Shown: positions 1,018-14,705 of the stretch, one piece after another
Layout of the letters: each line of letters starts with the position of its first letter
How positions within the stretch are numbered: the first letter of the stretch is position 1
Assembly: GCA_965232515.1 (NCBI GenBank)
Contig: CBDDPY010000002.1
Span: 416,001 to 480,000 of the forward strand
DNA length: 64,000 nt
Origin: Alphaproteobacteria bacterium
GTDB taxonomy: Bacteria > Pseudomonadota > Alphaproteobacteria > GCA-2731375
Direction of reading: 5' to 3'
Position numbers and translations under genes: made by a program
Notes under the pieces: model-generated
Seen by the model: the letters and a program-made list of their open reading frames with translations, nothing else
Databases searched by the model: none
Told to the model about the DNA's origin: nothing

Positions 1018-2376
1018 TTACTTCGGCACCGAGGCCTGGAACTTGGTCAAGGCCGCGACGAACCCTTGCGGCTTGTATTCCTCATCCTTGGCCACGGCGT
1101 CGTAAAGCCCGTTGACGGCCTTGTTCATGGCGTCGAGCTGGCCGCCGTCGACATAGCCGGCATTGCCCATGGCGTTGATGATGGCCGAGATCGCCATCGT
1201 CGCCTGCTCGGCGGCCGCATATTCGACGTATTCGCCCTTGCGGCCGTCGGTCAGGACGCCGTTCAACAGGGCCTGCATGGTCTCCTTGTTGAACTTATGC
1301 TTGGCGAAGACAGTCACCAGACGGTCGGAAATCTCCTTCACCTTGGCGGCGGCCGTCGCCATTTCCTTCGGGCCCTGCGTCGACGCCTTGTGCATCGCCA
1401 GGCCGGCGTCCCGCAGGCCCTTGCCGCTGTCGGGATCGATCTGCCGCGCCAGGATGTAGAGCATGATCATGTTGGCGTCGTTGATCTTCGGCACGCCCGG
1501 GCCGAGGCCGGTGGAGGCCCGCGGTTGCCAGCGCAGATTGCTCATCGGGTGATGGCAGGCGTGGCAGTCGAACAGCACCAGCTCGGGGAAGATGCCGTCG
1601 CGGCCCCGCTTCGGATCCATCATCGCGTCCATCATCTCGGACAGCGCCACGGCCTGGCCGATGGCCCAGGTCTGCACGCCGTTCGAGACCTGCTTGCGCT
1701 TGCGGTAGTCGGCGTCGACCTTGTAGTGCGCCGGCTGCACGGCCGTGAAGGTATCGAGCTCGAAGGCCATGCGCGGATGGCCGGCGCCCATGATGCGGTG
1801 CGTGACGAACTTCTTGTCCACGCCGAAATGGCACGACAGGCACAGTTTGGCGCGCGCGATCGGCTCCTCGGTCGGATAGAGGCCGGCCGCGATGTTGTCG
1901 GCATGCGTCGCGGTGCCGGACACGTGCAGGCCGAGCCAGCGCACGGCGCCGCCGTGACAGGCCTCGCAGCCGACGCCGTCGCTGATCTGGAAGGTCTTGC
2001 CGCGCAGGTTTTGGGGTGGATTGTTGGCATGGCAGTCGAGGCAGAGGTCCGCCGTGTGCGCGTCCTTCAGCCCGAGATTGGCGGCGATCCGCTTGGATTG
2101 CTCGTTCAGCAGAACCGCATAGGCCTTGGCGTGCTTATCGTTCTTCTGCCAGGTGATGTATTCGTTCTGCAGAACCGTCGAGTCGGGCCAGGTCTGCACC
2201 GAGCCGTGACAGGTGCTGCCGGCGCAGGTGACCACGCCCAAATGCGTATCTTTCGCATATTGCGGCAGCACGGGGTCGGCGGCGTTGGCGGGCAGGGCGG
2301 CTAGCATGCCCCCCGTCACGAACATAGCCACGACCGTATCCCTGATGGCTGATCGCCATCCGTAAAGAATCGCCAT
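1018..2376 (-). CDS. Exported multihaem c-type cytochrome (c554-like), five haem-binding motifs
   Basis: Signal peptide ending ANA-A; motifs CAGSTCH (CX4CH), CLDCH, CEACH, CLSCH and CHACH. Confidence 0.85.
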   Translation of the reverse strand: MAILYGWRSAIRDTVVAMFVTGGMLAALPANAADPVLPQYAKDTHLGVVTCAGSTCHGSVQTWPDSTVLQNEYITWQKNDKHAKAYAVLLNEQSKRIAANLGLKDAHTADLCLDCHANNPPQNLRGKTFQISDGVGCEACHGGAVRWLGLHVSGTATHADNIAAGLYPTEEPIARAKLCLSCHFGVDKKFVTHRIMGAGHPRMAFELDTFTAVQPAHYKVDADYRKRKQVSNGVQTWAIGQAVALSEMMDAMMDPKRGRDGIFPELVLFDCHACHHPMSNLRWQPRASTGLGPGVPKINDANMIMLYILARQIDPDSGKGLRDAGLAMHKASTQGPKEMATAAAKVKEISDRLVTVFAKHKFNKETMQALLNGVLTDGRKGEYVEYAAAEQATMAISAIINAMGNAGYVDGGQLDAMNKAVNGLYDAVAKDEEYKPQGFVAALTKFQASVPK

Positions 2377-3012: not shown

Positions 3013-3768
3013 ATGCCCGACACGCTGACGCTCCTTACCAACCTGATGCCGGTCGTCGCCGCGCCGTTTATCGGCAGCTTCCTGACGACGGCCGCGCTGC
3101 GTTCGGCGACGGCGCAGCCGGTGGTCTGGGGACGCTCGGCCTGCCCGGCCTGCCATCAGCGACTGGGGCCGATAGATCTGTTGCCGGTGCTGAGCTGGCT
3201 GGCGACGCGTGGCCAGTGCCGTTATTGCCGGGCGCGGGTGTCGGTATTCTATCCGGCCGTTGAGGTCGCCGCGCTCTCGGTCGCTGCCTGGGCCGCTCTG
3301 TGGCTGGATGGTCCGGGCCTGTGGATTGCCTGCGGCCTCGGCTGGCTGCTGCTGCTCCTGGCGGCGATCGATTGGCGCTATCGCTTGTTGCCCGACGCAC
3401 TGACGCTGTCCTTGGGGATTTTCGGCCTGCTGATCGCCACCGTCGACGGCCGGATCGCGGACGCGGCGATTGGCGCCGCTGTCGGACTGTCGGTCTTTGC
3501 CGCCGTGCGCTGGCTCTATGCCCGGATCCGCCGGCGCGAGGGTCTAGGCCTGGGCGATGTGAAGCTTATTGCGGCGGCCGGCACATGGGTCGGCTGGGCC
3601 GGCCTGCCCAGCCTCGTGCTGATCGCATCGCTTGCGGCGCTTGCCGTGGTCGGTATCGGCGCCGTGGGCGGTCGGCGCGTCCGTCCCGATGACGCCGTGC
3701 CGTTCGGCAGCTATCTGGCTTTCGGCTGTTGGATCGTCTGGCTGCACGGCCCGCTGCGCTTCGCCTAG
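3013..3768 (+). CDS. gspO: Prepilin peptidase (A24 family, GspO/PilD)
   Basis: Two CxxC pairs (SACPAC, GQCRYC), IDWRYRLLPD, GLGDVKL and PFGSYL motifs; multiple TM helices. Confidence 0.92.
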   Translation: MPDTLTLLTNLMPVVAAPFIGSFLTTAALRSATAQPVVWGRSACPACHQRLGPIDLLPVLSWLATRGQCRYCRARVSVFYPAVEVAALSVAAWAALWLDGPGLWIACGLGWLLLLLAAIDWRYRLLPDALTLSLGIFGLLIATVDGRIADAAIGAAVGLSVFAAVRWLYARIRRREGLGLGDVKLIAAAGTWVGWAGLPSLVLIASLAALAVVGIGAVGGRRVRPDDAVPFGSYLAFGCWIVWLHGPLRFA

Positions 3769-3840
3769 GCCGTCCGCACGGGCTAGAATGCGCCTCGAAA
3801 TTCGGGGAGGTTTCCGGCCGGACGATGCCGGGCTGCTGAG

Positions 3841-5061
3841 ATGCCGATCTTCCAATACAAAGCCGTCGCCCCGTCGGGCGAGGTCACCGAAGGCCGCATG
3901 GAGGCGGCCAGCCGCGACGACGTGATCCGGCGGCTGCAGGCCGACGACTTCGTGCCGATCCGGGCGGACGAGCAGACGGCGGAGGATACGGGCCTCGGCG
4001 CCACGCTGCAGGCCGCGTTGCGACAGCCGATCGGCCGGTCCGGACCATTGCCGCGCGCGCTCGGGCTGTTCACCCACGAGCTTGCGACCCTCCTCGGCGC
4101 CGGCCTCACCGTCGAGCGCGCGCTCGCTATCCTTTCGAGTGTGGCCGGTGGACGATCTTCCGAGCTGGCGTGGGGCCTGCTGCAGCGTCTGCAGGCCGGA
4201 CAGGCGTTGTCCGATGCCATGGCGGCCCGATCCGACCTATTCGGTGGCTTCTACGTGGCCATGGTGCGGGCCGGCGAGGCCGGCGGCGATCTCGCGGCGG
4301 CTTTGTCGCGGCTCGCCGGCTATCTCGAACGCGCGCGCGCCGCCGCCGACAATTTGAAATCGGCGCTGATCTATCCGGCGATCCTGGTGGCTTTCGCCAT
4401 CCTGTCGGTGATGCTGCTGATGACCTTCGTCGTGCCGCAGTTCGAAGTCATGTTCCGCGAGGCCGGCCGCGAGCTACCGACGGCGACGCGGGCTCTGATC
4501 GCCGCCTCCGGATTCATGCGCGACTTCGGCTGGCTGCTGGTGATCGTGCTAGCGATCGTCTGGCTCGCCGCCCGGCAGCGGAAATTCGGCGCCGTCGTCG
4601 ATGGCTATTTGCTCCGGCTGCCGTATCTCGGCCGGCTGATCGCGCGGATCGAGACCGAGCGGTTCGCTCGTGCACTGGGCGCGCTGCTGTCGGGTGGCGT
4701 CGCCCTGCCGCCGGCATTGGATCTCGCCGCGGGCGTGCTGTCCAACCGGGCCATGGCGCGCGCCGCCGCCGAGGTCGCCGCCACGGTCCGCGAGGGCGGT
4801 AGATTTGGCGAGGCAATCACTGACGCCGGCCTGTTCCCGGGCGTCGCCGCCGAGTTGGTGAAGGTGGGCGAGGAGACCGGCCGGCTTGCCGACATGCTCA
4901 TCCGGACCGCCGATATCGAAGCCACCGAACTGGCCGCGAGCCTGCGCCGCCTGGTCGCCGTGGCAGTACCCGGCGTCACCATTCTGTTGGGCCTGTTCGT
5001 GGCCGCGATCATCCTGGCGGTGATGTCGGCCATCCTGGGCGCCTACGATCTGACGCTATGA
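3841..5061 (+). CDS. gspF: Type II secretion inner-membrane platform protein GspF
   Basis: MPIFQYKA start, FTHELATLLGAGL, MVRAGEAGG, ALIYPAIL and VGEETGRL motifs. Confidence 0.93.
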   Translation: MPIFQYKAVAPSGEVTEGRMEAASRDDVIRRLQADDFVPIRADEQTAEDTGLGATLQAALRQPIGRSGPLPRALGLFTHELATLLGAGLTVERALAILSSVAGGRSSELAWGLLQRLQAGQALSDAMAARSDLFGGFYVAMVRAGEAGGDLAAALSRLAGYLERARAAADNLKSALIYPAILVAFAILSVMLLMTFVVPQFEVMFREAGRELPTATRALIAASGFMRDFGWLLVIVLAIVWLAARQRKFGAVVDGYLLRLPYLGRLIARIETERFARALGALLSGGVALPPALDLAAGVLSNRAMARAAAEVAATVREGGRFGEAITDAGLFPGVAAELVKVGEETGRLADMLIRTADIEATELAASLRRLVAVAVPGVTILLGLFVAAIILAVMSAILGAYDLTL

Positions 5062-5447
5062 CATCGGACCGTCGGGCACGGAGCCGCGGCTTCACCTTGA
5101 TCGAGGTGCTGGTCGCCTTCGCGCTCGTCGCGCTGATCCTGGGCGCGGCGTTACGGTTGGTGTCGGGCGGCCTGAACGACAGCGATGCCGCCGAGCGGCA
5201 TACTCTCGCGGTTCTGGTGGCGGAGTCCCGGCTCGCCGAAGTGGGTGCGGCGGCGCCGCTGGAACCGGGCATCACCGAGGGCTCCGCATCCGACATCTAT
5301 CGTTGGCGACGGGAGATCAGATTGCTGGATGGCCAGACCGACGCCGACCCGCTGCCACTCTACGCGGTGACGGTCGATGTGACCTGGGACGATGGACCCG
5401 GCGTCCGCCTCGCCACGCTGCGACCGGGGCGGTCAGACCCGCCATGA
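5058..5447 (+). CDS. gspI: Minor pseudopilin GspI
   Basis: Class III signal RG|FTLIEVLVA; 129 aa; ATGA overlaps with both neighbours. Confidence 0.85.
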   Translation: MTSDRRARSRGFTLIEVLVAFALVALILGAALRLVSGGLNDSDAAERHTLAVLVAESRLAEVGAAAPLEPGITEGSASDIYRWRREIRLLDGQTDADPLPLYAVTVDVTWDDGPGVRLATLRPGRSDPP

Positions 5448-6040
5448 GCCGGGGATTCACGCTGATCGAGCTGCTGGTGGCGATGACGCTGCTGGCTTTG
5501 ATGTCCGCCGTGCTGTTCGGCGGCCTGCGGCTGGGCGGCAGCGCCGCCGCGCGCGTCGAGGCGCAAGCCGAGAGCCTGGAAGACCTGAGGCTGGTGCAGT
5601 CGTTTCTCCGCCGTCAACTGACATCGGCACAGCCGGTGATCTGGATCGTTAACCGCGAACCGGCGGTCGCCTTCGACGGCCGTTCGGATGGCGTGGATTT
5701 CATCGGTGAGCTGCCGGCCCATCTCGCGACCGGCGGCCGGCAGGCTGTTCGACTGCAAGCCGGGTCCGGCGGCGAGCTGTCGTTGACCTGGCATCCGCTC
5801 GGCGGCAACGAACAGGCCTTCGCGTTTGAGGATGGTCGGCGGCATCGTCTCGCCGACGGTTTGGGCAAGCTGCGTTTCGACTATTTCGGTCAACGGCCAA
5901 TCGACTCACCGGCGCAATGGCACGACACGTGGCAGGGCGCCGATGGCCTGCCGGAGTTGATCCGTGTGCGTAACGAGGACGACGAACCCTCTTGGCCCGA
6001 GCTCATCGTCGCCCCGCGCCTCGATCCGGGTCTGCGCTAA
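5444..6040 (+). CDS. gspJ: Minor pseudopilin GspJ
   Basis: MSRG|FTLIELLVAM; ATG at 5444 overlaps the gspI TGA; C-terminal W..W...LPELIRV...WPEL pattern. Confidence 0.87.
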   Translation: MSRGFTLIELLVAMTLLALMSAVLFGGLRLGGSAAARVEAQAESLEDLRLVQSFLRRQLTSAQPVIWIVNREPAVAFDGRSDGVDFIGELPAHLATGGRQAVRLQAGSGGELSLTWHPLGGNEQAFAFEDGRRHRLADGLGKLRFDYFGQRPIDSPAQWHDTWQGADGLPELIRVRNEDDEPSWPELIVAPRLDPGLR

Positions 6041-6043
6041 TCC

Positions 6044-6964
6044 ATGTGGCCCATCGCACCACCATCCGACAGTAGCCGTGGCTTCGCGCTGATCCTGGTC
6101 TTGTGGGCGCTGGCGCTGTTGTCGACGCTTGCCGTGGCCTTGTCGACGACGGGCCGGTCCGACGTGGCGCTGACCCACAATCTGGTGGAGACCAGCCGCG
6201 CTGCGCATCTTGCGGACGCCGGCATTTACGTCGGCATTCGGGCGTTGCTGACGCCGGAAAACCTGCCGGCGATCGATGACGACGGTCGCAGGCGGCTGGA
6301 TGTCCGCATCGACGGCGCCGAGGTGCGGCTCGTCCTGCAGGATGAGGGCGGCAAGGTCGACGTGAACCAGACGCCACAACGCCTGTTGCGCGGCGCTCTG
6401 TTGGCGGCCGGGGCTGCGGATGGTGAGGCTAACCGCCTTGCCGACGCGATCATGGATTGGCGCGACAGGGACGATCGGCGGCGCGATTTCGGTGCCGAGG
6501 CGTCGGCGTACGAACGCGCCGGACAGCCGGACCGGCCGCGCAACGGTCCATTCGAGCTGCTGAGCGAGCTACGGCTCGTGTTGGGTATGTCCGACGATCT
6601 GTATGCCCGGCTGAAACCGTTCGTCACCATCGACTCGCGGCAGGCCGGTCTCGACCCCGGCCAAGCCTCGGCGGCGCTCCTGCGCGCCGTGCCGGAGCTG
6701 TCGGGTGTCGACGTTCGGCGGTTGCTGGCGATGCGGGGGGATGCCGAACCGGGATCGGCTCTGCCCAACGTCGGTGGCGGCGCGGAGCTCCTGGTCGCCG
6801 GCCATGGCCTCGCCCACACGGTGACGGCCGATGTGGTCCTGCCGTCGGGCGTGGCGTACCGCAGCGAGGCCGTGGTGCTGATCAGCGACGCCGTCGACCG
6901 GCCCTATCGAATCCGGGCTTGGCGGTCGCCGGCCGTCGATGGTGCTGCGCTGGCGGCCCCCTGA
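6044..6964 (+). CDS. gspK: Minor pseudopilin GspK
   Basis: RG|FALILVLW with no Glu at +5 (typical of GspK); DEGGKVDVN, AIMDWRDRD and ELRLVLGM motifs. Confidence 0.9.
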   Translation: MWPIAPPSDSSRGFALILVLWALALLSTLAVALSTTGRSDVALTHNLVETSRAAHLADAGIYVGIRALLTPENLPAIDDDGRRRLDVRIDGAEVRLVLQDEGGKVDVNQTPQRLLRGALLAAGAADGEANRLADAIMDWRDRDDRRRDFGAEASAYERAGQPDRPRNGPFELLSELRLVLGMSDDLYARLKPFVTIDSRQAGLDPGQASAALLRAVPELSGVDVRRLLAMRGDAEPGSALPNVGGGAELLVAGHGLAHTVTADVVLPSGVAYRSEAVVLISDAVDRPYRIRAWRSPAVDGAALAAP

Positions 6965-6985
6965 AGAACGCCGTATAAGAATCGC

Positions 6986-8023
6986 ATGACGGCGACGCTT
7001 TCTTCCGGACCGGCGGCCGACGGCGGGTCGACGCTTCGGCGTTTCACGCGGTGGTGGGGCGGCGAGCTCGCTGCTCTGGTGCCGGGCGGCTTGCGTCGCG
7101 CGATCGGACTGGAAAGCCCCGAGCTGCTGATCCTGGCGCGGTCCGACGATCTTCGCCTGCGCCGCCGTCGGGGCGGCCGGTTGGAGGAACTGGGTGGCCT
7201 GGACGCCGTACCGGCCGGCGCGGACGATGCCCGTATCGTTCTGCAGATCCCGGCTGAACGGGCGTTTGTAAAGACCGTGCAGCTGCCGCTCGCCGCATCG
7301 GAAAACCTGCCCGAAGTCCTGGCCTTCGAGATGGACCGGCAGACGCCGTTCCAGCCCGACCAGGTTCATTTCGGATATTCCGTGCTTGCCCGTAACACGG
7401 CGGAGAAGACATTGCAGGTTCGCCTCTCGGTCGTTCCGAGATCCGTGGTCGCGGGCGCGCTCGAACAGCTCCGTCGACGGGAGATAACGGCCGACGCGAT
7501 CGAGATTGTCGATGCTGACCGCTTGATCGGCGTGCCCGCTGGTGCGCCGCAGACAACAGGCATCGGGCGTCTGAACGGCCTGCTGATGGTGCTGTGCCTG
7601 TTGCTTCTGATCGCGGCCGTCGCCTCACCGGCGGCCGTCCGCTACTACCGCATTGCCGAAATGGATCGGGAGATCGCGGCCCTGAAGCCGCGCGCCGAGG
7701 CGGCGCTGGCCCGGCGCGGCGATACCGACCGGCAGACCGAAGGCGCGATGCAGGCGATCGCCGCCCGCGCGGCGGCGCCCTTCGCGACCGCTGTGCTCGA
7801 GGAGGTGACGCGATTGCTGCCGGATGACACCTGGCTGGCGCAATTCAACATCGTCTCCGGACGGGTCGAGATCGAAGGTTCGACTGCGTCGGCAACGAAT
7901 TTGGTGCCGCTGCTCGAGGGCTCGCCGCTGTTTGCGGCCGTATCCTTCCGGGCCCCGCTGACAACCAATGCCGTGACCCGGCGCGAGCACTTCCAGTTCG
8001 TAATCGAGTTGTCGCCGCGATGA
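6986..8023 (+). CDS. gspL: T2SS protein GspL (PilN-type periplasmic domain)
   Basis: WWGGEL, LPLAASENL.EVL.FEMDRQTPF, a single TM helix and LLPDDTWL; XpsL-like. Confidence 0.85.
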   Translation: MTATLSSGPAADGGSTLRRFTRWWGGELAALVPGGLRRAIGLESPELLILARSDDLRLRRRRGGRLEELGGLDAVPAGADDARIVLQIPAERAFVKTVQLPLAASENLPEVLAFEMDRQTPFQPDQVHFGYSVLARNTAEKTLQVRLSVVPRSVVAGALEQLRRREITADAIEIVDADRLIGVPAGAPQTTGIGRLNGLLMVLCLLLLIAAVASPAAVRYYRIAEMDREIAALKPRAEAALARRGDTDRQTEGAMQAIAARAAAPFATAVLEEVTRLLPDDTWLAQFNIVSGRVEIEGSTASATNLVPLLEGSPLFAAVSFRAPLTTNAVTRREHFQFVIELSPR

Positions 8024-8574
8024 GCCGGATATTGCAGCGCCTGGCGGCCGTCGCCCTGCTTCTGCTTGTTGTGGTCGTCGGCTATGCGGGCCTCGCCGCG
8101 CCGTTGGCCGCGCATTATGCCGTGCTGGAACAGCGTGAGCGGCAGACGGCCCGGCTGTTGGAGCGTTACCGACGCATCGTCGCCCGAACGGAAGCGCCGT
8201 CAGCCGCGACCGGTACGCATAATCTCCCGCTGACAGAAATCTACCTGCCGGGTGAAAGCCCGGCTCAAGCCGTGGCGGCGCTGCAGGACCGTGTGAAGTT
8301 CGCGGCCGCTGACGCCGGCGCGCGGCTGGGCAGCGTCGAGGTGCTGGCGCCCCGCGCCGACGGCGGCCTGAACCGTCAGGCTGTCCGGGCCCGTTTCACC
8401 GCCGACACACAATCCCTGCAAAAGGTACTCCACAGCCTGGAATCGAGCCGGCCGCTGCTGCTGCTGAACAATCTCTACGTCCGGGCGCGGGATACGCGGT
8501 CGGACACGTCGCAGCTTCGGCTCGACATCCGAATCGACGTCGTCGGTTTCGCCGGCGGGGCGGCGGGATCGTGA
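8020..8574 (+). CDS. gspM: T2SS protein GspM
   Basis: N-terminal TM helix, coiled coil, LQKVLHSLESSRPLL motif; position after gspL. Confidence 0.82.
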   Translation: MSRILQRLAAVALLLLVVVVGYAGLAAPLAAHYAVLEQRERQTARLLERYRRIVARTEAPSAATGTHNLPLTEIYLPGESPAQAVAALQDRVKFAAADAGARLGSVEVLAPRADGGLNRQAVRARFTADTQSLQKVLHSLESSRPLLLLNNLYVRARDTRSDTSQLRLDIRIDVVGFAGGAAGS

Positions 8575-9077
8575 AGACGCGCGCCCGTCGAAGGCTCGGC
8601 CTCGTGCTGGGACTTGCCTGTCTGCTGTTCGGGCTGGCGACGGCCGTGCCGTGGCTGGGTGTCGCCGGCGGCCCTCCGCCGGTTTCTGCGGTCGGTGCGT
8701 CCGCCAACACCACCGACCGGCCACGGGTCGATCTCGCCGCGCTGACCGTGCCCGGCCTCGAGGCTTATTCGCAAACCCGCGAACGGCCGTTGTTCCTATC
8801 GACCCGGCGCGTGATCGCAGCCGCGCCAGACAACGCGGGCGATGCGCCCGCCGGGCTGATGGACCGCTATGTCTTCACGGGCGTCGTCATCGCGCCGGAC
8901 CAGCGGCTGGTCCTGCTGCGGCCGATTGGCGGCGGCGGCGTCCGGCGTGTCGCCGAGGGCGACGTGCTGGACGGCTGGCTGATCGAGGAGATCGCCAACG
9001 ATTTCCTGACCATTGTCGCCGACGGCCGGCGCGAGGTCGTACCGCTGGTCGGACAAAGCCCGGAAACGCGCCGATAG
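8571..9077 (+). CDS. T2SS protein XpsN/GspC-like
   Basis: Single TM helix, RERPLFLSTRR, FTGVVI and EGDVLDGW motifs; lies between gspM and gspD. Confidence 0.72.
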   Translation: MKTRARRRLGLVLGLACLLFGLATAVPWLGVAGGPPPVSAVGASANTTDRPRVDLAALTVPGLEAYSQTRERPLFLSTRRVIAAAPDNAGDAPAGLMDRYVFTGVVIAPDQRLVLLRPIGGGGVRRVAEGDVLDGWLIEEIANDFLTIVADGRREVVPLVGQSPETRR

Positions 9078-9136
9078 CGTTAACGCCGGCCTGCAAGTAA
9101 GATGACGTCGCATAATGTGTGGCGGGGCTGAACCCG

Positions 9137-11308
9137 ATGCGAGGCTTGGCGTTTAGGGGAGGGGTTGCGGCTGCGGCGATGGCGCTGCTGCTGACCGCCT
9201 GCGCGCTCGAGCCGGAGCGTCAGTCCGCCGCCGAGGCGCAGCCGCAAGCACAGCCCACCGGGCGTCAGGTGCTCGCTCCGGTACCGCCGCCGGTGACGCC
9301 GCCGGCCGCGCAACCCGTCTCGCGACCCGCCAACGAGCGGGGCGACGACGGGAAGATCGCCGAGATCTATCCGGCCACCGGCGGCACCATCGATCCGGCC
9401 GCCATCGGTACCGGCGCCGCGACGGCCCGGCGCGGCGATATCACGCTCAACTTCACCGATGCCGACGTCCGTCAGGTGGCCCAGGTGGTGCTACGCGACC
9501 TGCTGGGCGTGAACTACGTAATCGATCCGGATGTCCGGGGCACCGTGTCGGTTGAGACCGGCCGGCCGCTGGCGCGGCAGGACCTGATCCCGGTGCTGGA
9601 ATCGATCCTCGAGACCGTGAACGCAGCGCTGGTGCGCAATGCCGGCGTCTACCGCATCACCACGGTGGCGCGGGCGCCGGGCGGTGGCGATTCGCTGCAA
9701 TTGGGCGCCGACGGGCGCGGGTTTGCCGTCTCGGTCTATCCGCTCGCCTATATCGGCGCCGAGGAAATGGCCAGGATCGTGGCGCCGCTACTGCCGGATG
9801 GCCGCGTCGTGCGGGCGGATGCATCGCGCGGTCTGATTACGGTCGCCGGCACCGGTCGCGAGCAGAAGCTGGTGGCGGAGGCCATCGAGATCTTCGATGT
9901 CGATCAGATGGCCGGCACCTCGGTGCTGCTGGAATCGCTGAACAATGTCGAGGTCAACACGCTGGTGTTCGAGCTCGACAACGTCTTTGGCGGCCTGCAG
10001 AAGGGCCCGCTCGCCGGGTTGGTGCGGGTGATCCCGGTCGAGCGCATGAACGCCGTCATGGTGATCTCCAAGCAGCCGCAGTATCTGGACCAGGCCCGCA
10101 ACTGGATCGCCCGGCTCGACCGGACACGCAACGCCAAGGCGCGGCGGCTGTTCGTCTACTACGCCCAGAACGGCAAGGCGGTCGATCTGGCGCAGACCTT
10201 GCGCGGTATCTTCGATGCCGGTGAAGACGGCGCGACGCCGGTGACAGGCGTCAGCCTGGCGCCGGTGTTGGCGGCTGCCGCGGCCGAATCCACCGCCGAG
10301 ACGGCGACTGACGGGGCGCTGCCGACGCCGCCGGCCGCGAAGGCGGAGGACGTCGCCGTCCGCATCATGGCCGACGAGCCGAACAATGCCGTGCTGGTGC
10401 TGGCGACGCCTGCCGAATACGACATCATCGAGGAAGTGCTGGTGAAGCTGGATATCCAGCCGTTGCAGGTGCTGATCGAGGCGACGATCATCGAGATCAG
10501 ACTGCGCGATCAGCTGCGTTTCGGCCTGCAGTATTTCATCAAGTCGGGCGGCCTTGGCATCACTGACACCGGCAACACGGTGCTGACGCGAGGCACCAGC
10601 TCGCTGATCCAGTCCGCATTTCCGGGTTTCTCTTTCACGCTGGCCGATACCGACCAGGCCCGTGCGATCCTGGATACGCTATCGCAGCTCACCGAAGTGA
10701 AGGTCGTGTCGTCGCCGCAGGTCATGGTGCTCGACAACCAGCCGGCGAAGCTGCATGTCGGCGACCAGGTGCCGATCATCACCCAAAGCTCGATCAGCAA
10801 CATCACCGACGACTCTCGCACGGTGAATGCGGTCGAATATCGCGACACCGGCGTCACTCTGGAGGTCACGCCGCGCATCAACGCCAGCGGCCTCGTGACC
10901 CTCGAGATCGCCCAGGAAGTCAGCGACGTGGTCGAGACCGACACCTCGGGCATCGACTCGCCGACAATTCAGCAGCGCCAGATTCTTAGCACCGTCGCCA
11001 TCGCCGGCGGTCAGACCGTGGCCCTCGGCGGGCTTATCCGCGAGAGCTCGAACGACAGCCGTTCGGGTGTGCCGTTCCTGGTCGACCTGCCGGTGGTTGG
11101 GCCACTGTTCGGCGATTCCGCGGCCGACCTCAACCGCACCGAGCTGCTGGTACTGTTGACCCCGAGCGTGGTCCGCAACCAGCGCGAGGCCTATGACCTG
11201 ACGGCAAGCCTGCGCAACCGCTACCAGGCGCTGCTGGACCTGGAGCGCGACGGTGTGCGGCAGCCACGCCGCTTCGGCGACGCGCCTGAAATCAAACTTT
11301 TCGACTGA
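9137..11308 (+). CDS. gspD: T2SS secretin GspD (lipoprotein type)
   Basis: Lipobox LLTAC; N0 domain ITLNFTDADVRQV; QVLIEATIIE, LDNQPAKLHVGDQVP and GVPFL.DLPVVG.LF secretin motifs. Alternative GTG start at 9119. Confidence 0.95.
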   Translation: MRGLAFRGGVAAAAMALLLTACALEPERQSAAEAQPQAQPTGRQVLAPVPPPVTPPAAQPVSRPANERGDDGKIAEIYPATGGTIDPAAIGTGAATARRGDITLNFTDADVRQVAQVVLRDLLGVNYVIDPDVRGTVSVETGRPLARQDLIPVLESILETVNAALVRNAGVYRITTVARAPGGGDSLQLGADGRGFAVSVYPLAYIGAEEMARIVAPLLPDGRVVRADASRGLITVAGTGREQKLVAEAIEIFDVDQMAGTSVLLESLNNVEVNTLVFELDNVFGGLQKGPLAGLVRVIPVERMNAVMVISKQPQYLDQARNWIARLDRTRNAKARRLFVYYAQNGKAVDLAQTLRGIFDAGEDGATPVTGVSLAPVLAAAAAESTAETATDGALPTPPAAKAEDVAVRIMADEPNNAVLVLATPAEYDIIEEVLVKLDIQPLQVLIEATIIEIRLRDQLRFGLQYFIKSGGLGITDTGNTVLTRGTSSLIQSAFPGFSFTLADTDQARAILDTLSQLTEVKVVSSPQVMVLDNQPAKLHVGDQVPIITQSSISNITDDSRTVNAVEYRDTGVTLEVTPRINASGLVTLEIAQEVSDVVETDTSGIDSPTIQQRQILSTVAIAGGQTVALGGLIRESSNDSRSGVPFLVDLPVVGPLFGDSAADLNRTELLVLLTPSVVRNQREAYDLTASLRNRYQALLDLERDGVRQPRRFGDAPEIKLFD

Positions 11309-12478
11309 TCAGGGCGTGAAGGTCGCGGTGACGGCGTAGTCGCCCGTGCCCGCGCAGCAGTGGCTGATCCTGAGATAGTAGGTGCCGGCGCCCAGCGTCT
11401 CGGAGATCGAGAAGTTGTACCAGGTGCCGTCGTCGTCGCTGCGGGCGATCACGTTGCCGACGCCGTCTTCCAGCGTCGCCACCAGGTCGCTGCCGCCGCT
11501 CGACGACGCGTTGACCGTGCCGCCGCTGGTCGTAATCCGGAACAGATCGACATCGCCATCGGTGCCGATGCGGCCGGCCGTCACGTTGCCCGTGGTCAGC
11601 GCCGTCGCCGAACCGGTCGTCGCCGCATGGTCGTCGGCCGGCGCGCCGACGCTGCCGGTGCCGTCGGTAACGAAGATCTCGAATGCGTCGAGCGCCGTCA
11701 TGCTGGAATTGCTGCCGAACACCAACAGCTTGCCGGCGCCGAGCGGTGTGTCGGCCGGTACCCGGACCGTGGCCGTGATCCGGTCGTTCGCCACGCGCTG
11801 GGCGTTCTCGATGACAATGTTGTCCGGACCCTGCAGGTGCGGCGTGCTGCCGGCGCTGCTGTAGTCGCCGCCGGAAAGCGTCATCGTCGTCGTCGTGCCG
11901 CGCGCGATGAAGACGCGGCTTTGCAGCAACGCGTCCCGCGCCGTGGCGACCACGGTTTCCAGGTCGTTGCCGTTCAGCCCGGCGATCGCGTCGCGCACCG
12001 AAGCGGGCAGCTCGATGCTGCGCTGGATCAGCATCTTCAGCATGTATCCCTGTGCATCGGCCGACGAATCGAACCATTTGCCGCCGACAGAATCGAGCGC
12101 CACGTAGAAGCGTCCGTTCTGGTGCTGGTAGACCTGCCGCAGGTCGATTGCGTTCCCCCCGAGCCGCTCGTAAAGGTCATAGACCCGCAGGTTCGACTTC
12201 GCCCACTGCGTCTCCTCGACCGTGCGATTGACGCTGCCATACAGGCCATTGCGATCCTGGATCGGGTTGTACCACTGCAGGGAGCTGCGTCCCGCGACAT
12301 TGACTTGGGCAAAGTGATCGGACGACTGTGCGCGGTAGGCATCGATGCCGCCGTTCAGCTGCTGGAGGAAGTTGTCGCGGCCCCCAGTATCATCCACGGC
12401 GATCGTGCCAGCCGTCGCCCAGGACGAGGTCAGCAACAAGCAAATAACGGTCAGCGATCCCAGCCGTGTCATGCGCAT
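11309..12478 (-). CDS. Secreted protein with an Ig-like (IPT/TIG-like) domain and a C-terminal PPC-like domain
   Basis: Sec signal (..SSWATA|G); ITATVRVPADTPLG Ig-like segment; DDHA...GRIGTDGDVDLFRI...ARSDDDG...LGAGTYYLRI PPC-type pattern. Confidence 0.7.
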   Translation of the reverse strand: MRMTRLGSLTVICLLLTSSWATAGTIAVDDTGGRDNFLQQLNGGIDAYRAQSSDHFAQVNVAGRSSLQWYNPIQDRNGLYGSVNRTVEETQWAKSNLRVYDLYERLGGNAIDLRQVYQHQNGRFYVALDSVGGKWFDSSADAQGYMLKMLIQRSIELPASVRDAIAGLNGNDLETVVATARDALLQSRVFIARGTTTTMTLSGGDYSSAGSTPHLQGPDNIVIENAQRVANDRITATVRVPADTPLGAGKLLVFGSNSSMTALDAFEIFVTDGTGSVGAPADDHAATTGSATALTTGNVTAGRIGTDGDVDLFRITTSGGTVNASSSGGSDLVATLEDGVGNVIARSDDDGTWYNFSISETLGAGTYYLRISHCCAGTGDYAVTATFTP

Positions 12479-12565
12479 CCCCTGAATGCCCCCATGCCGC
12501 AACGCGTTTCGGGGAAAATTTACCCTATTCGACTTGATGGGACAAAGGTTCCGATGCCACCTCTG

Positions 12566-14008
12566 TCAGCCTTCGAGGCGCCCGATCGGCGCGATCACAT
12601 AGCCGTCCGCCGTCTCCTGAAGGTCGGCGCCGTTTGCCTGCAACTGTTGGCGGAGGGCGGACAGCAACTCGGCGGCGTCAATGGCCCGGCTCGGCGCCAA
12701 TGAAATCGTTCCGCGGACGCCCGGCGCCACCCGATAGGGACGGCGCAGCAGGTCCCCGAAGATCGTCGCGGCCGCTTCCTCGATCGGACTGTTCCGCAGA
12801 TCTACATTGTATCGGCCGCCGAGGCGCAGACCCGGTGTCGCGACCGCCGCCCGCGCCGGTGCGGTCGTCGTCGGCGTCGGTTTGGCGCCGGGCGTTGGCG
12901 GCGTCAACCGGATCCCAGGCTGAACCGGCGCAACTTGTGGCGCCGGCGGCGCACCGGCGAAGTCGGCATCGGTCAGAACCATGATCGGCTGGCCCGTCGG
13001 TGGCCGCTGCAACGGCGACAGCGGTTCGTGTCGCGCCGGGCCATAGCCGATCGGCACGGCGCCGGGGCGCACCGGCCGTGGGCCGGCGGAAGGCGTCACG
13101 CCGCTCAGCGCAAGCCGCTGTGTCGTCCGCGTGCCCGGTGGCGTCAGCTGGATGCGCTGCGTCGGAGGTGGCGAGACGCCACTGTACGGGCGGCTGCCGT
13201 TGCCGCCGATCACGACGGTGTCGAATGGCGGGGCAAGGCCGGCGGTCGGCGCCGGCGGTCGCAGCTGCGGCCGGGTGGCGGGCGCGGCCGGCCGCAGGCG
13301 CGGCTGCGGGACAACGGCAGCTATCGCCCTCTGTGGCGTGGCCGTAGCCGCGGGCGGCGGCGGCGGGGCGGGCGGTGCGGCCGCGGTTGAAGGGGGTGGT
13401 GCCGGCGGTGACGGCGTCGGTGCGGGTGCCGCCGAGGGCGGTGACGTTGCGATTGCGGGCGCGGGACGGGGCGGCGCCGGCGGCTCGGTCCGCAGGGTCG
13501 TGGTCAGCGGCCGGCCCTGATTTGCCGACTCAGCCGTCCGTTGGGACGATTTGGCGGCGCGGAACGCCGCCACCTGATCGGCCGTCATCTCGCGTTCGGA
13601 GACGAAGGCGCCTTCGCGGTAGACCGCCTGCACCAACCGGCCGTCCGGCGATTCGATGACGAACGCGCCGTCCCGGACGCCGTCGCGATAGGTGCCGTAG
13701 ATGCGGTTGCCGTTGGCGAAGGTGATGGTGGCCTCGCCGTGCAGTTCGCCGTCCTTGAACGTGCCCTCGTCGCGCTCGTATTCCCGTCCGTCGGCATACC
13801 AGGTCAGCACGCCGGGACCGGACAGCTTGCCGTCGCGGCAACGACCGGTCCAGCGGATGCTCTCGTTCGGCCGAGGAAAGGGATTGCTGGTCGCACAACC
13901 CGATTCCGGGTCGCGGATCAGACTGCCGGATTGCGCCTGGGCGTCCGCGGCCAGCAGCGCCAGGACCGGCGCAGCGACGATGAACGATATTTGTGCGGGC
14001 CGCCCCAT
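12566..14008 (-). CDS. Exported protein: MORN-like repeats, Pro-rich linker, C-terminal secretin N0-like domain
   Basis: Signal peptide (AQA|Q); WTGRCRDGKLSGPG, EGTFKDGELHGEA and YGTYRDGVRDG repeats; long Pro/Ala/Thr tract; the last ~80 aa align without gaps to the GspD N0 domain in this window. Confidence 0.75.
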   Translation of the reverse strand: MGRPAQISFIVAAPVLALLAADAQAQSGSLIRDPESGCATSNPFPRPNESIRWTGRCRDGKLSGPGVLTWYADGREYERDEGTFKDGELHGEATITFANGNRIYGTYRDGVRDGAFVIESPDGRLVQAVYREGAFVSEREMTADQVAAFRAAKSSQRTAESANQGRPLTTTLRTEPPAPPRPAPAIATSPPSAAPAPTPSPPAPPPSTAAAPPAPPPPPAATATPQRAIAAVVPQPRLRPAAPATRPQLRPPAPTAGLAPPFDTVVIGGNGSRPYSGVSPPPTQRIQLTPPGTRTTQRLALSGVTPSAGPRPVRPGAVPIGYGPARHEPLSPLQRPPTGQPIMVLTDADFAGAPPAPQVAPVQPGIRLTPPTPGAKPTPTTTAPARAAVATPGLRLGGRYNVDLRNSPIEEAAATIFGDLLRRPYRVAPGVRGTISLAPSRAIDAAELLSALRQQLQANGADLQETADGYVIAPIGRLEG

Positions 14009-14072
14009 CGCGCGTCAGTATAGCGGAACTCACGCGAACGTCATGGTTGTCGCACTTGTCTGCGCCGCCGGG

Positions 14073-14705
14073 ATGTCCAAATCTGCCGTCATGACCGAAC
14101 TCGACAGCCTGCTCAGCGAGATTCGCGCCTGTCGCGTGTGCGAGGCGCACCTGCCGCTCGGACCGCGGCCGGTGCTGCGCGCCAGTTCTGGCGCCCGAAT
14201 CCTGATCGCCGGTCAGGCGCCAGGCACGAAAGTGCACGAATCGGGCATTCCCTGGAACGACGCCAGCGGCGACCGCCTGCGCGACTGGCTCCAGATCGAC
14301 AACGATACGTTCTACGACGAGCGCCGCATCAACATCGTGCCCATGGGCTTCTGCTATCCCGGCCGCGACGCCCGGGGCGGCGATCTGCCGCCACGACCCG
14401 AATGCGCGACGCACTGGCACACGCGGCTGATGCCGTTGTTGGACCGATCCGAGCTGGTCCTGCTCGTTGGGCAGTACGCGCAAGCCTGGCACCTCGGCAA
14501 GGCGCGCAAGCGGTCGCTCACCGAAACGGTGCGAGCCTGGCGCGACTATGGTCCGCGATATCTGCCGCTGCCGCACCCGTCCTGGCGCACCACCGGCTGG
14601 CAGAAGAAGAACCCCTGGTTCGAGGCCGAGGTGCTGCCCGAATTGCGGGCGCGGATCTCGCCTCTGCTGAAACGACCTAGGGGTAAGGCTGCTTCTGCAC
14701 GTTGA
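14073..14705 (+). CDS. Uracil-DNA glycosylase superfamily protein
   Basis: CRVC, IAGQAPG..VHESG.PWND, FCYPG, PPRPEC and LPHPS motifs. Start at 14073 or 14091. Confidence 0.88.
   Translation: MSKSAVMTELDSLLSEIRACRVCEAHLPLGPRPVLRASSGARILIAGQAPGTKVHESGIPWNDASGDRLRDWLQIDNDTFYDERRINIVPMGFCYPGRDARGGDLPPRPECATHWHTRLMPLLDRSELVLLVGQYAQAWHLGKARKRSLTETVRAWRDYGPRYLPLPHPSWRTTGWQKKNPWFEAEVLPELRARISPLLKRPRGKAASAR

Follow-up and report, generated by a model that had tools for sequence, protein, structure and literature searches.

An exported MORN-repeat protein with a C-terminal secretin N0-like domain, encoded beside gspD of a type II secretion system in Alphaproteobacteria

How a type II secretion system (T2SS) picks its cargo and by what means its secretin couples to the platform of the inner membrane are open questions, and free-standing copies of the machine's own domains are natural probes of such junctions. 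The window analyzed here is the whole stretch of 64,000 nucleotides at positions 416,001 to 480,000 of contig CBDDPY010000002.1 (Alphaproteobacteria bacterium, assembly GCA_965232515.1). In this window, next to the secretin gene gspD, lies a gene for a protein (P0001) that begins with a signal peptide and MORN repeats and ends, after a long linker, with a domain resembling N0 of the secretin. We examined whether this domain is a genuine copy of N0, whether the gene belongs with the T2SS, and which role of the protein is the most plausible. The parts of P0001 are as follows.

12566..14008, minus strand: gene of P0001, the MORN-linker-N0 protein (open reading frame and translation; 480 residues plus stop)
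13934..14008, minus strand: signal peptide, residues 1-25 (AQA/QS site after a hydrophobic stretch; translation read by eye)
13559..13933, minus strand: MORN-repeat domain, residues 26-150 (Pfam MORN and PDB MORN1 matches)
12824..13558, minus strand: Pro/Ala/Thr-rich linker, residues 151-395, 245 residues (composition count)
12569..12823, minus strand: N0-like C-terminal domain, residues 396-480 (BLASTP, profile, and fold model)

The initial annotation had placed the C-terminal segment alongside the N0 domain of the nearby GspD in a gapless alignment, with 21 of 75 identities counted by hand. This match was borne out by BLASTP, which aligned residues 398-477 of P0001 to residues 106-185 of the adjacent GspD without gaps (22/80 identities; E 3e-6). 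When the 80-mer of P0001 was scanned along GspD, the best gapless offset was exactly the N0 position, and none of 2000 shuffles reached 22 identities (mean best, 14.6; maximum, 21). Positions 3-72 of the NCBIfam GspD model matched residues 404-474 of P0001. The last 94 residues found no match in the PDB when used as a single-sequence phmmer query. The profile built from 11 family domains (A1), on the other hand, retrieved N0 of Legionella LspD as its best match among the PDB sequences (7pmp; E 7e-4), followed by four N-terminal entries of XcpQ. Against 1.84 billion representative proteins, the same profile gave 1693 matches at E<=1e-3, including 228 at E<=1e-10. Members of the P0001 family or their fragments occupied the top eight rows, and secretins followed from E 1e-16 onward, with true secretins at E values of about 1e-14 and the domain located at around residues 90-190 of proteins of 650-800 residues. 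Among 32 of the 150 listed rows that were scanned with Pfam, 25 combined GspD N0 with Secretin_N and/or Secretin, and the other seven comprised five family members or fragments (P0021, P0022, P0023, P0026, and P0058) and two proteins with N0 only (P0034 and P0039).

The N0 fold proposed by the initial annotation was also recovered in the structure prediction. For the last 95 residues of P0001, AlphaFold predicted a model with the order beta-alpha-beta-beta-alpha-beta-beta (predicted local distance difference test [pLDDT] of 80, with 86-91 in the core blocks). In the Foldseek search with this model, the N0 domains of LspD, XcpQ, and enterotoxigenic Escherichia coli (ETEC) GspD ranked first, and 4jtm was matched with a template modeling (TM) score of 0.82 on the target and a root mean square deviation (rmsd) of 1.7 over 77 columns. 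The eight best matches by VIA-align were all N0 of T2SS secretins (Z 11.1-12.2; rmsd 1.4-2.7 over 74-83 residues), and the next were DotD (Z 9.8), N0 of PilQ (Z 9.6), and anti-sigma or signaling domains (Z 8.5-9.3). The N0 model of the homologue in Oceanibacterium hippocampi matched ETEC GspD N0 with a Z of 11.5. Judged from the alignments, profiles, and predicted fold, the C-terminal 85 residues of P0001 are a true paralogue of the secretin N0 domain (PF21305), sharing homologous sequence and the same predicted fold with N0 of GspD, XcpQ, and LspD. In contrast to the secretins, in P0001 the N0 domain is the last one, being preceded by the MORN domain and the 245-residue linker and followed by neither N1-N3 nor a secretin domain; Pfam detected no Secretin_N or Secretin in P0001, which terminates 3 residues past the aligned region.

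The lower-ranking fold matches bear on whether P0001 could be a sensor akin to those of cell-surface signaling, whose N0/STN-fold domain would touch an anti-sigma factor or some other regulator on its periplasmic domain and thereby control the expression of the secretion genes. Signaling and anti-sigma structures are found among them (PupR/PupB 6ovk, Z 8.6; 4m0h, Z 9.3; FpvA, Z 8.5), and such a role has been proposed for VreA of the PUMA3 system, which is encoded beside the Hxc T2SS of Pseudomonas aeruginosa and is a soluble periplasmic two-domain protein with an STN/N0 fold (PMC2729926). VreA resembles the signaling domains of TonB-dependent transducers and acts together with the adjacent VreR/VreI pair. 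The domain of P0001 is, however, closest to secretin N0 in both the sequence profile and the best folds (Z 11-12), rather than to STN signaling domains. Furthermore, none of the 11 FecR-family matches of the genome falls inside the window, the nearest being more than 200 kb away, and no sigma or anti-sigma gene was detected among the Pfam-scanned neighbors at 1-16.4 kb. We thus regard a signaling role as very improbable. DotD of the Legionella Dot/Icm system and VirB7 of Xanthomonas offer another comparison, as both carry a free-standing N0 fold after a flexible segment and sit at the periphery of a secretion machine. Nevertheless, these are small lipoproteins in the outer-membrane complexes of type IV secretion systems (T4SSs) and less similar to the P0001 N0 model than T2SS N0 is (VIA-align: 7mud, Z 9.8; 3ady, Z 8.5; 3ov5, Z 6.8), while P0001 bears no lipobox and no T4SS gene was found among its Pfam-scanned neighbors.

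The rest of P0001 is as the initial annotation had described it. The open reading frame at 12566..14008 is genuine and encodes 480 residues, its stop codon occupying 12566-12568. Read by eye, the N-terminus shows a hydrophobic stretch and then AQA/QS, which resembles the usual cleavage site of signal peptidase I; a lipobox is absent. The MORN-like repeats were found by Pfam at 31 bits, above the cut-off of 22.5, and residues 26-150 matched the solved chains of MORN1 (PDB 6t4r) with an E value of 1.1e-12 over four stretches. Unlike MORN1 (6t4r and 6t6q), which is eukaryotic and cytoplasmic, the MORN domain of P0001 is exported, has a Cys-containing cap, and comprises only three to four repeats. 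The cap is conserved in the alignment of all family proteins (D33, C38, TSNP, W53, C57, and others), and Cys 38 and Cys 57 are invariant. Other exported MORN proteins of Alphaproteobacteria (loci L031-L034; genomes G033, G010, G024, and G019), some of which have at least 10 repeats, share this N-terminal Cys cap, of the form C-x-V-W-N ... W-x-G-x-C. As no T2SS genes were found near the MORN proteins at L031-L034, the cap is a general feature of such periplasmic MORN domains.

The stretch of more than 200 Pro/Ala/Thr-rich residues noted previously corresponds to the linker of 245 residues, 55% of which are Pro (26%), Ala (18%), or Thr (11%). It contains a few conserved islets, namely FDTVVIGG at residue 265 and I/L-x-L-T-P-P at residues 286 and 366. 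In the four close homologues, identity to P0001 amounts to 89-96% in the MORN domain and 84-94% in N0, and to 63-82% in the linker. By this measure, the MORN and N0 ends are under more constraint than the linker between them. Immediately ahead of N0, the linker contains repeats of a short motif, [ILV]-x-[ILV]-[RT]-P-P, two copies of which are in P0001 (residues 286-370; window 12899-13153). At least one copy occurs in eight of the 10 N0-bearing proteins checked, more being visible by eye in P0026 and P0058, and none was found in the six proteins with the Cys-rich C-terminal domain only (P0014-P0019; see below). This motif may serve as a strand-forming binding motif. The combination of a Pro-rich spacer and a small C-terminal domain is reminiscent of TonB; we dropped this reading, as P0001 has no membrane anchor and no TonB_C match in Pfam, and its C-terminal domain is N0.

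The gene of P0001 faces the T2SS genes of the window across the PPC-domain gene P0003. The relevant features are listed below.

3013..9077, plus strand: T2SS operon with gspO, F, I, J, K, L, M, and a gspC-like gene (Pfam and NCBIfam)
8571..9077, plus strand: P0020, GspC-like protein of 168 residues (translation, family alignment, and position after gspM)
9119..11308, plus strand: gspD, secretin with N0, Secretin_N, and Secretin, convergent with the P0003/P0001 pair (Pfam)
11309..12472, minus strand: P0003, exported protein of 387 residues with a C-terminal PPC domain (Pfam and NCBIfam, both below cut-off; open reading frame readable from 12502)

P0020 has an N-terminal membrane helix, a conserved RPLF motif, and a C-terminal beta-rich, HR-like domain. 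The end of gspD at 11308 abuts the stop codon of P0003, which starts at the next base, and P0001 lies 93 bp upstream of P0003 on the same strand, with no terminator-like site detected between the two by the site scan. P0003 is 387 residues long in its database form and up to 397 residues as an open reading frame. The PPC domain was suggested by Pfam at an E value of 0.0032, under the cut-off, and by the NCBIfam DVUA0089 family at 25.3 bits against a cut-off of 29, and the ESM Atlas returned PPC-type clusters only (0.87-0.91). No PDB sequence matched P0003 at E<=1. The database family of P0003 consists of 10 proteins, none of which is named otherwise than 'hypothetical protein.'

The linkage to the T2SS, on which the initial annotation leaned, recurs in other genomes. 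An orthologue of P0001 was found in 10 of 61 related genomes, nine of which also possess a close GspD orthologue, and the scan across species added 13 genomes. Altogether, gspD was present in the fetched flank in 16 of the 20 informative family-bearing genomes, usually with the PPC-domain gene in between; three loci cut by contig ends (L042, L044, and L050) are outside these 20. Two genomes, G007 and G005, retain the gene order of the window. The MORN-N0 gene of G008, which is divided between the ends of two contigs, adjoins gspD with no PPC gene, and in G001, the N0-coding end is 1.3 kb from gspD. In five genomes (G030, G021, G023, G060, and L039), the MORN and PPC genes are inside the gsp cluster, between gspK and gspD, and the genes D-C-M-L are inverted. 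The cluster of G030 represents the full set, in which gspO, E, F, G, H, I, J, and K are followed by the two genes and then by D, C, M, and L on the other strand. Among the 13 genomes of the species-wide scan, gspD was found in the flank in seven (L035, L039, L041, L043, L045, L048, and L049). The linkage holds from 84% down to approximately 43% identity in the MORN domain, in records labeled as Sneathiellaceae, Kiloniellales, Acetobacterales, and Rhodospirillaceae. Thus, the family gene stays with gspD, usually together with the PPC-domain gene, across genera and a rearrangement of the cluster.

Two gene orders can be distinguished: K-L-M-C-D followed by convergent PPC and MORN genes (the window, L026, and L027), and K, MORN, and PPC followed by inverted D-C-M-L (L022, L023, L024, L028, and L039). 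In each of the five genomes that have the second order, the protein is a lipoprotein form that lacks N0. Both orders can be explained by one inversion of the block L-M-C-D-PPC-MORN, so that the two arrangements are not independent evidence, and the genomes are kin to each other. P0001 could also be an envelope protein that has no functional relation to the T2SS, with N0 as a generic protein-binding module and a neighborhood inherited within one lineage, a view to which the relatedness of most genomes with this arrangement and the four genomes with the gene and no gspD in the flank lend something. We nevertheless consider this quite improbable, as the linkage persists to approximately 43% MORN identity and across four taxon labels, and the nearest relatives of the domain are N0 of exactly this kind of secretin.

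The word-indexed search of 5.8 billion proteins recovered 17 family proteins including the query. The initial annotation had called the protein uncharacterized, and indeed no source names any of the 17 otherwise than 'hypothetical protein,' and full-text literature searches turned up no description of a MORN-tether-N0 (TPR, 4-Cys) family linked to T2SS clusters. Their C-termini vary: eight proteins end with N0, two carry N0 followed by a domain with four cysteines (the 4-Cys domain), six have the 4-Cys domain only, and one is partial. In the last but one group, the 4-Cys domain usually comes after a short TPR-like helical segment. The pattern scan of one genome per species found 16 loci, in which 12 open reading frames end inside their locus; eight of these 12 encode 4-Cys only, two N0 and 4-Cys, one N0 only, and one neither. 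The N0 module is therefore optional in the family. What is conserved is the MORN domain, along with the 4-Cys domain in most members, though P0001 itself lacks the latter. The fullest form, with MORN, linker, N0, TPR-like segment, and 4-Cys domain, is found in Oceanibacterium hippocampi CECT 7691 (L035), P0026, and P0058. The C-terminal 267 residues of the Oceanibacterium protein were predicted as three separate, confident modules (pLDDT 84.7; predicted TM score [pTM] 0.42), and the wide VIA search with this model returned matches of N0 and the TPR-like segment only, the 4-Cys part (190-267) being barely sampled.

The 4-Cys domain spans about 75-80 residues with the pattern C-x12-C-x32-C-x20-C (L035 11750-11989; the last ~80 residues of P0014-P0019, P0009, and P0011). 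It was predicted as a small beta domain with a pLDDT of about 95, and neither a Pfam match nor a usable ESM Atlas match was found. The linker ranges roughly from 100 to 500 residues across the family. In five relatives (G030, G021, G023, G060, and L039), the signal-peptidase-I site is replaced by a lipobox with the sequence L/V-S/A-G-C and then A or S. Assemblies often break in the GC-rich, Pro-coding linker, as in G008, where the halves of the gene are on two contig ends (L025/C27 and L029/C44), and four of the 16 loci of the species scan end inside the gene (L040, L042, L044, and L050). As the Pro-linker breaks short-read assemblies, the family is probably under-counted.

A tree was built from 26 N0 domains. 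One branch, with a support of 83/78, separated the 12 accessory domains from the 14 GspD copies of the same loci, and N0 of P0001 was placed in a well-supported, more diverged subgroup of eight (97/92). The separation of the accessory and GspD domains on the two sides of a single branch fits one origin from a single ancient copy of secretin N0.

What could a separate N0 domain do beside a T2SS? HR of GspC binds N0 of GspD through strand beta1 and helix alpha1 (PMC3169554), and HR of GspB/OutB binds the secretin N0 (PMC9239104); the binding is mainly due to the two beta1 strands, which pair in antiparallel orientation, together with helix alpha1. As N0 is the surface bound by HR of GspC or GspB via beta-strand augmentation in the solved T2SS structures, a free N0 would most likely dock on such an HR domain. 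In the alignment of the accessory and secretin N0 domains, the first strand retains its alternation of hydrophobic residues, and this is compatible with beta1-pairing to HR, not a proof of it. We tentatively propose, with a confidence slightly short of even, that P0001 is an exported soluble protein acting as a peripheral T2SS accessory that docks via its N0 on the HR domain of the GspC-like protein. The free N0 would dock on the HR-like domain of P0020 or pack against the secretin's own N0 ring, and the MORN module, at the far end of the flexible tether of ~245 residues, would hold a second partner. The best candidate for this partner is the co-encoded PPC-domain exoprotein P0003, otherwise a component of the outer envelope. 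In this way, P0001 might recruit something, such as cargo, to the T2SS or modulate the junction between GspC and the secretin. A more specific version, in which P0001 is a machine-mimicking substrate adaptor whose N0 plugs into the GspC HR in place of or beside the secretin N0 ring and whose MORN module carries the PPC exoprotein to the machine's entrance, seems unlikely to us.

The scaffolding protein GspB/OutB of Dickeya dadantii, together with the HR of GspC, is a parallel for an accessory of this kind, being likewise built from a module of the GspC-secretin junction and a long extension. P0001 differs in carrying the opposite half of the junction, N0 instead of HR, and in having a cleavable-type signal peptide (read by eye), no membrane anchor, no HR-like domain, and no identified peptidoglycan-binding part. 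A resemblance to the pilotins (GspS/AspS), which are small outer-membrane lipoproteins that bind the secretin, is opposed by the absence of a lipobox from P0001, though the five relatives mentioned above have one.

Several observations weigh against a peripheral accessory docking through N0. As N0 is dispensable in the family, whatever the family does is possible without it, and the variable architecture, linker length, and anchoring (soluble or lipoprotein) are less in keeping with a part of the machine than with a protein that is peripheral or exported. The evidence that P0020 is GspC consists of its gene position, its topology, and a single weak match of its profile to OutC (6hcg; E 0.054), which appeared among chance matches to beta-trefoils in the comparison with the PDB. 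The match of Pfam type_II_gspD_N0 (PF21305) to residues 403-469 of P0001 (21.3 bits; E 2.4e-4) is under the gathering cut-off of 27 bits, which N0 of relatives passes (36 bits in L035 and 33.6 bits in P0022). Four genomes carry the family gene and no gspD in the flank, namely G002, with no T2SS genes within 20 kb, and L037, L046, and L047, in spite of at least 2.7 kb of downstream sequence. Conversely, a full-length GspD match of 42-44% identity was found in two of the 51 relatives that lack the family (G003 and G048), in addition to distant or partial secretin matches in G004, G010, G013, and G047.

The main alternative is that P0001, and probably the PPC protein P0003 as well, is cargo of the T2SS, exported or displayed on the surface; the copy of N0 could then be the protein's own targeting handle, by which it engages GspC. 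Pullulanase is an example of a T2SS substrate that is a surface lipoprotein, and lipoprotein or soluble exoproteins are encoded beside gsp clusters in other bacteria. The lipobox in five relatives (G030, G021, G023, G060, and L039) fits this picture, and so do the long Pro-rich linkers and the variable domain content and length. The signal peptide, the two invariant cysteines of the MORN cap, and the four cysteines of the alternative C-terminal domain suit an oxidizing, extracytoplasmic site, the PPC domain of the partner gene is typical of secreted proteins, and some T2SS-bearing genomes lack the family. On the other hand, no role in a substrate is known for a domain derived from a secretin. 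The domain-library scans recognized neither an enzymatic nor an adhesin domain in P0001. The position of the gene is kept across alphaproteobacterial families and orders, including inside the operon, which is tighter than usual for cargo, albeit not exclusive to machine parts. We consider the cargo explanation less probable than the accessory role. Of the initial annotation's view of P0001 as an uncharacterized T2SS accessory, the N0 fold and the T2SS linkage on which it was founded stand; the accessory function itself, and with it the choice among adaptor, decoy, and tether, stays tentative. N0 is optional in the family, and the cargo or surface-protein explanation has some probability.

Free-standing N0 folds (DotD, Xanthomonas VirB7, and VreA) are already known, as is a T2SS accessory based on the HR side of the N0-HR junction (GspB/OutB). 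The exported MORN-tether-N0 family beside gspD is probably a previously undescribed add-on or dedicated client of the T2SS. In this family, one half of the best-characterized junction, that of N0 with HR, sits on a polypeptide of its own. The family is also linked in the genome to a compact, Xps-like T2SS and brings in the unannotated 4-Cys domain. Its presence in a cultured strain, O. hippocampi CECT 7691 (L035), adds to its interest. If the adaptor version were true, the family would offer a concrete handle on cargo recognition by the T2SS; if P0001 is plain cargo, the interest is modest.

The T2SS cluster of the window lacks gspE, gspG, and gspH, and these three form a small island ~2.9 Mb away on the same contig (L051, G000:C2:3335000-3353000, 7484-10555). 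In this island, gspG is on the plus strand and gspH-gspE on the minus strand, and the flanking genes, for gamma-glutamyltranspeptidase and P450, are unrelated. A second secretin gene, 36% identical to GspD of the window, was found in an open frame of 1006 residues at G000:C2:6506334-6508373 on the minus strand. Divergent from gspO, the window also contains a gene for a multihaem c-type cytochrome of 452 residues (1018-2376, minus strand; matches to Cytochrome_C554 and C7), the orthologues of which, with 54-71% identity, are in the same place at six related loci (L022, L023, L024, L025, L028, and L039). The cytochrome may be a cargo or partner of this T2SS.

Regarding the expression of P0001, one further feature was found.

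14017..14044, minus strand: promoter-like site, 9 nt 5' of the P0001 start codon (consensus scan)

The scan found one such site against 0.4 expected, which is weak evidence. Contigs of an RNA library (X1-X4; one study of a strain that is ~97-98% identical) span gspD, P0003, and P0001, and two of them bridge the gap between P0003 and P0001 (X1 record 6, 11747-12886; X2 record 12, 12419-12576). As their depth is flat at ~5 and contigs cannot prove a transcript, we did not count them as evidence of expression or co-transcription. On the plus strand, an open reading frame with a uracil-DNA glycosylase domain (13701-14705; domain at residues 164-316) overlaps the MORN gene in antisense at 13701-14008. 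The tblastn matches of its first ~90 residues elsewhere are the mirror image of MORN conservation rather than a genuine extension, and the true start of this frame is probably near 14090.

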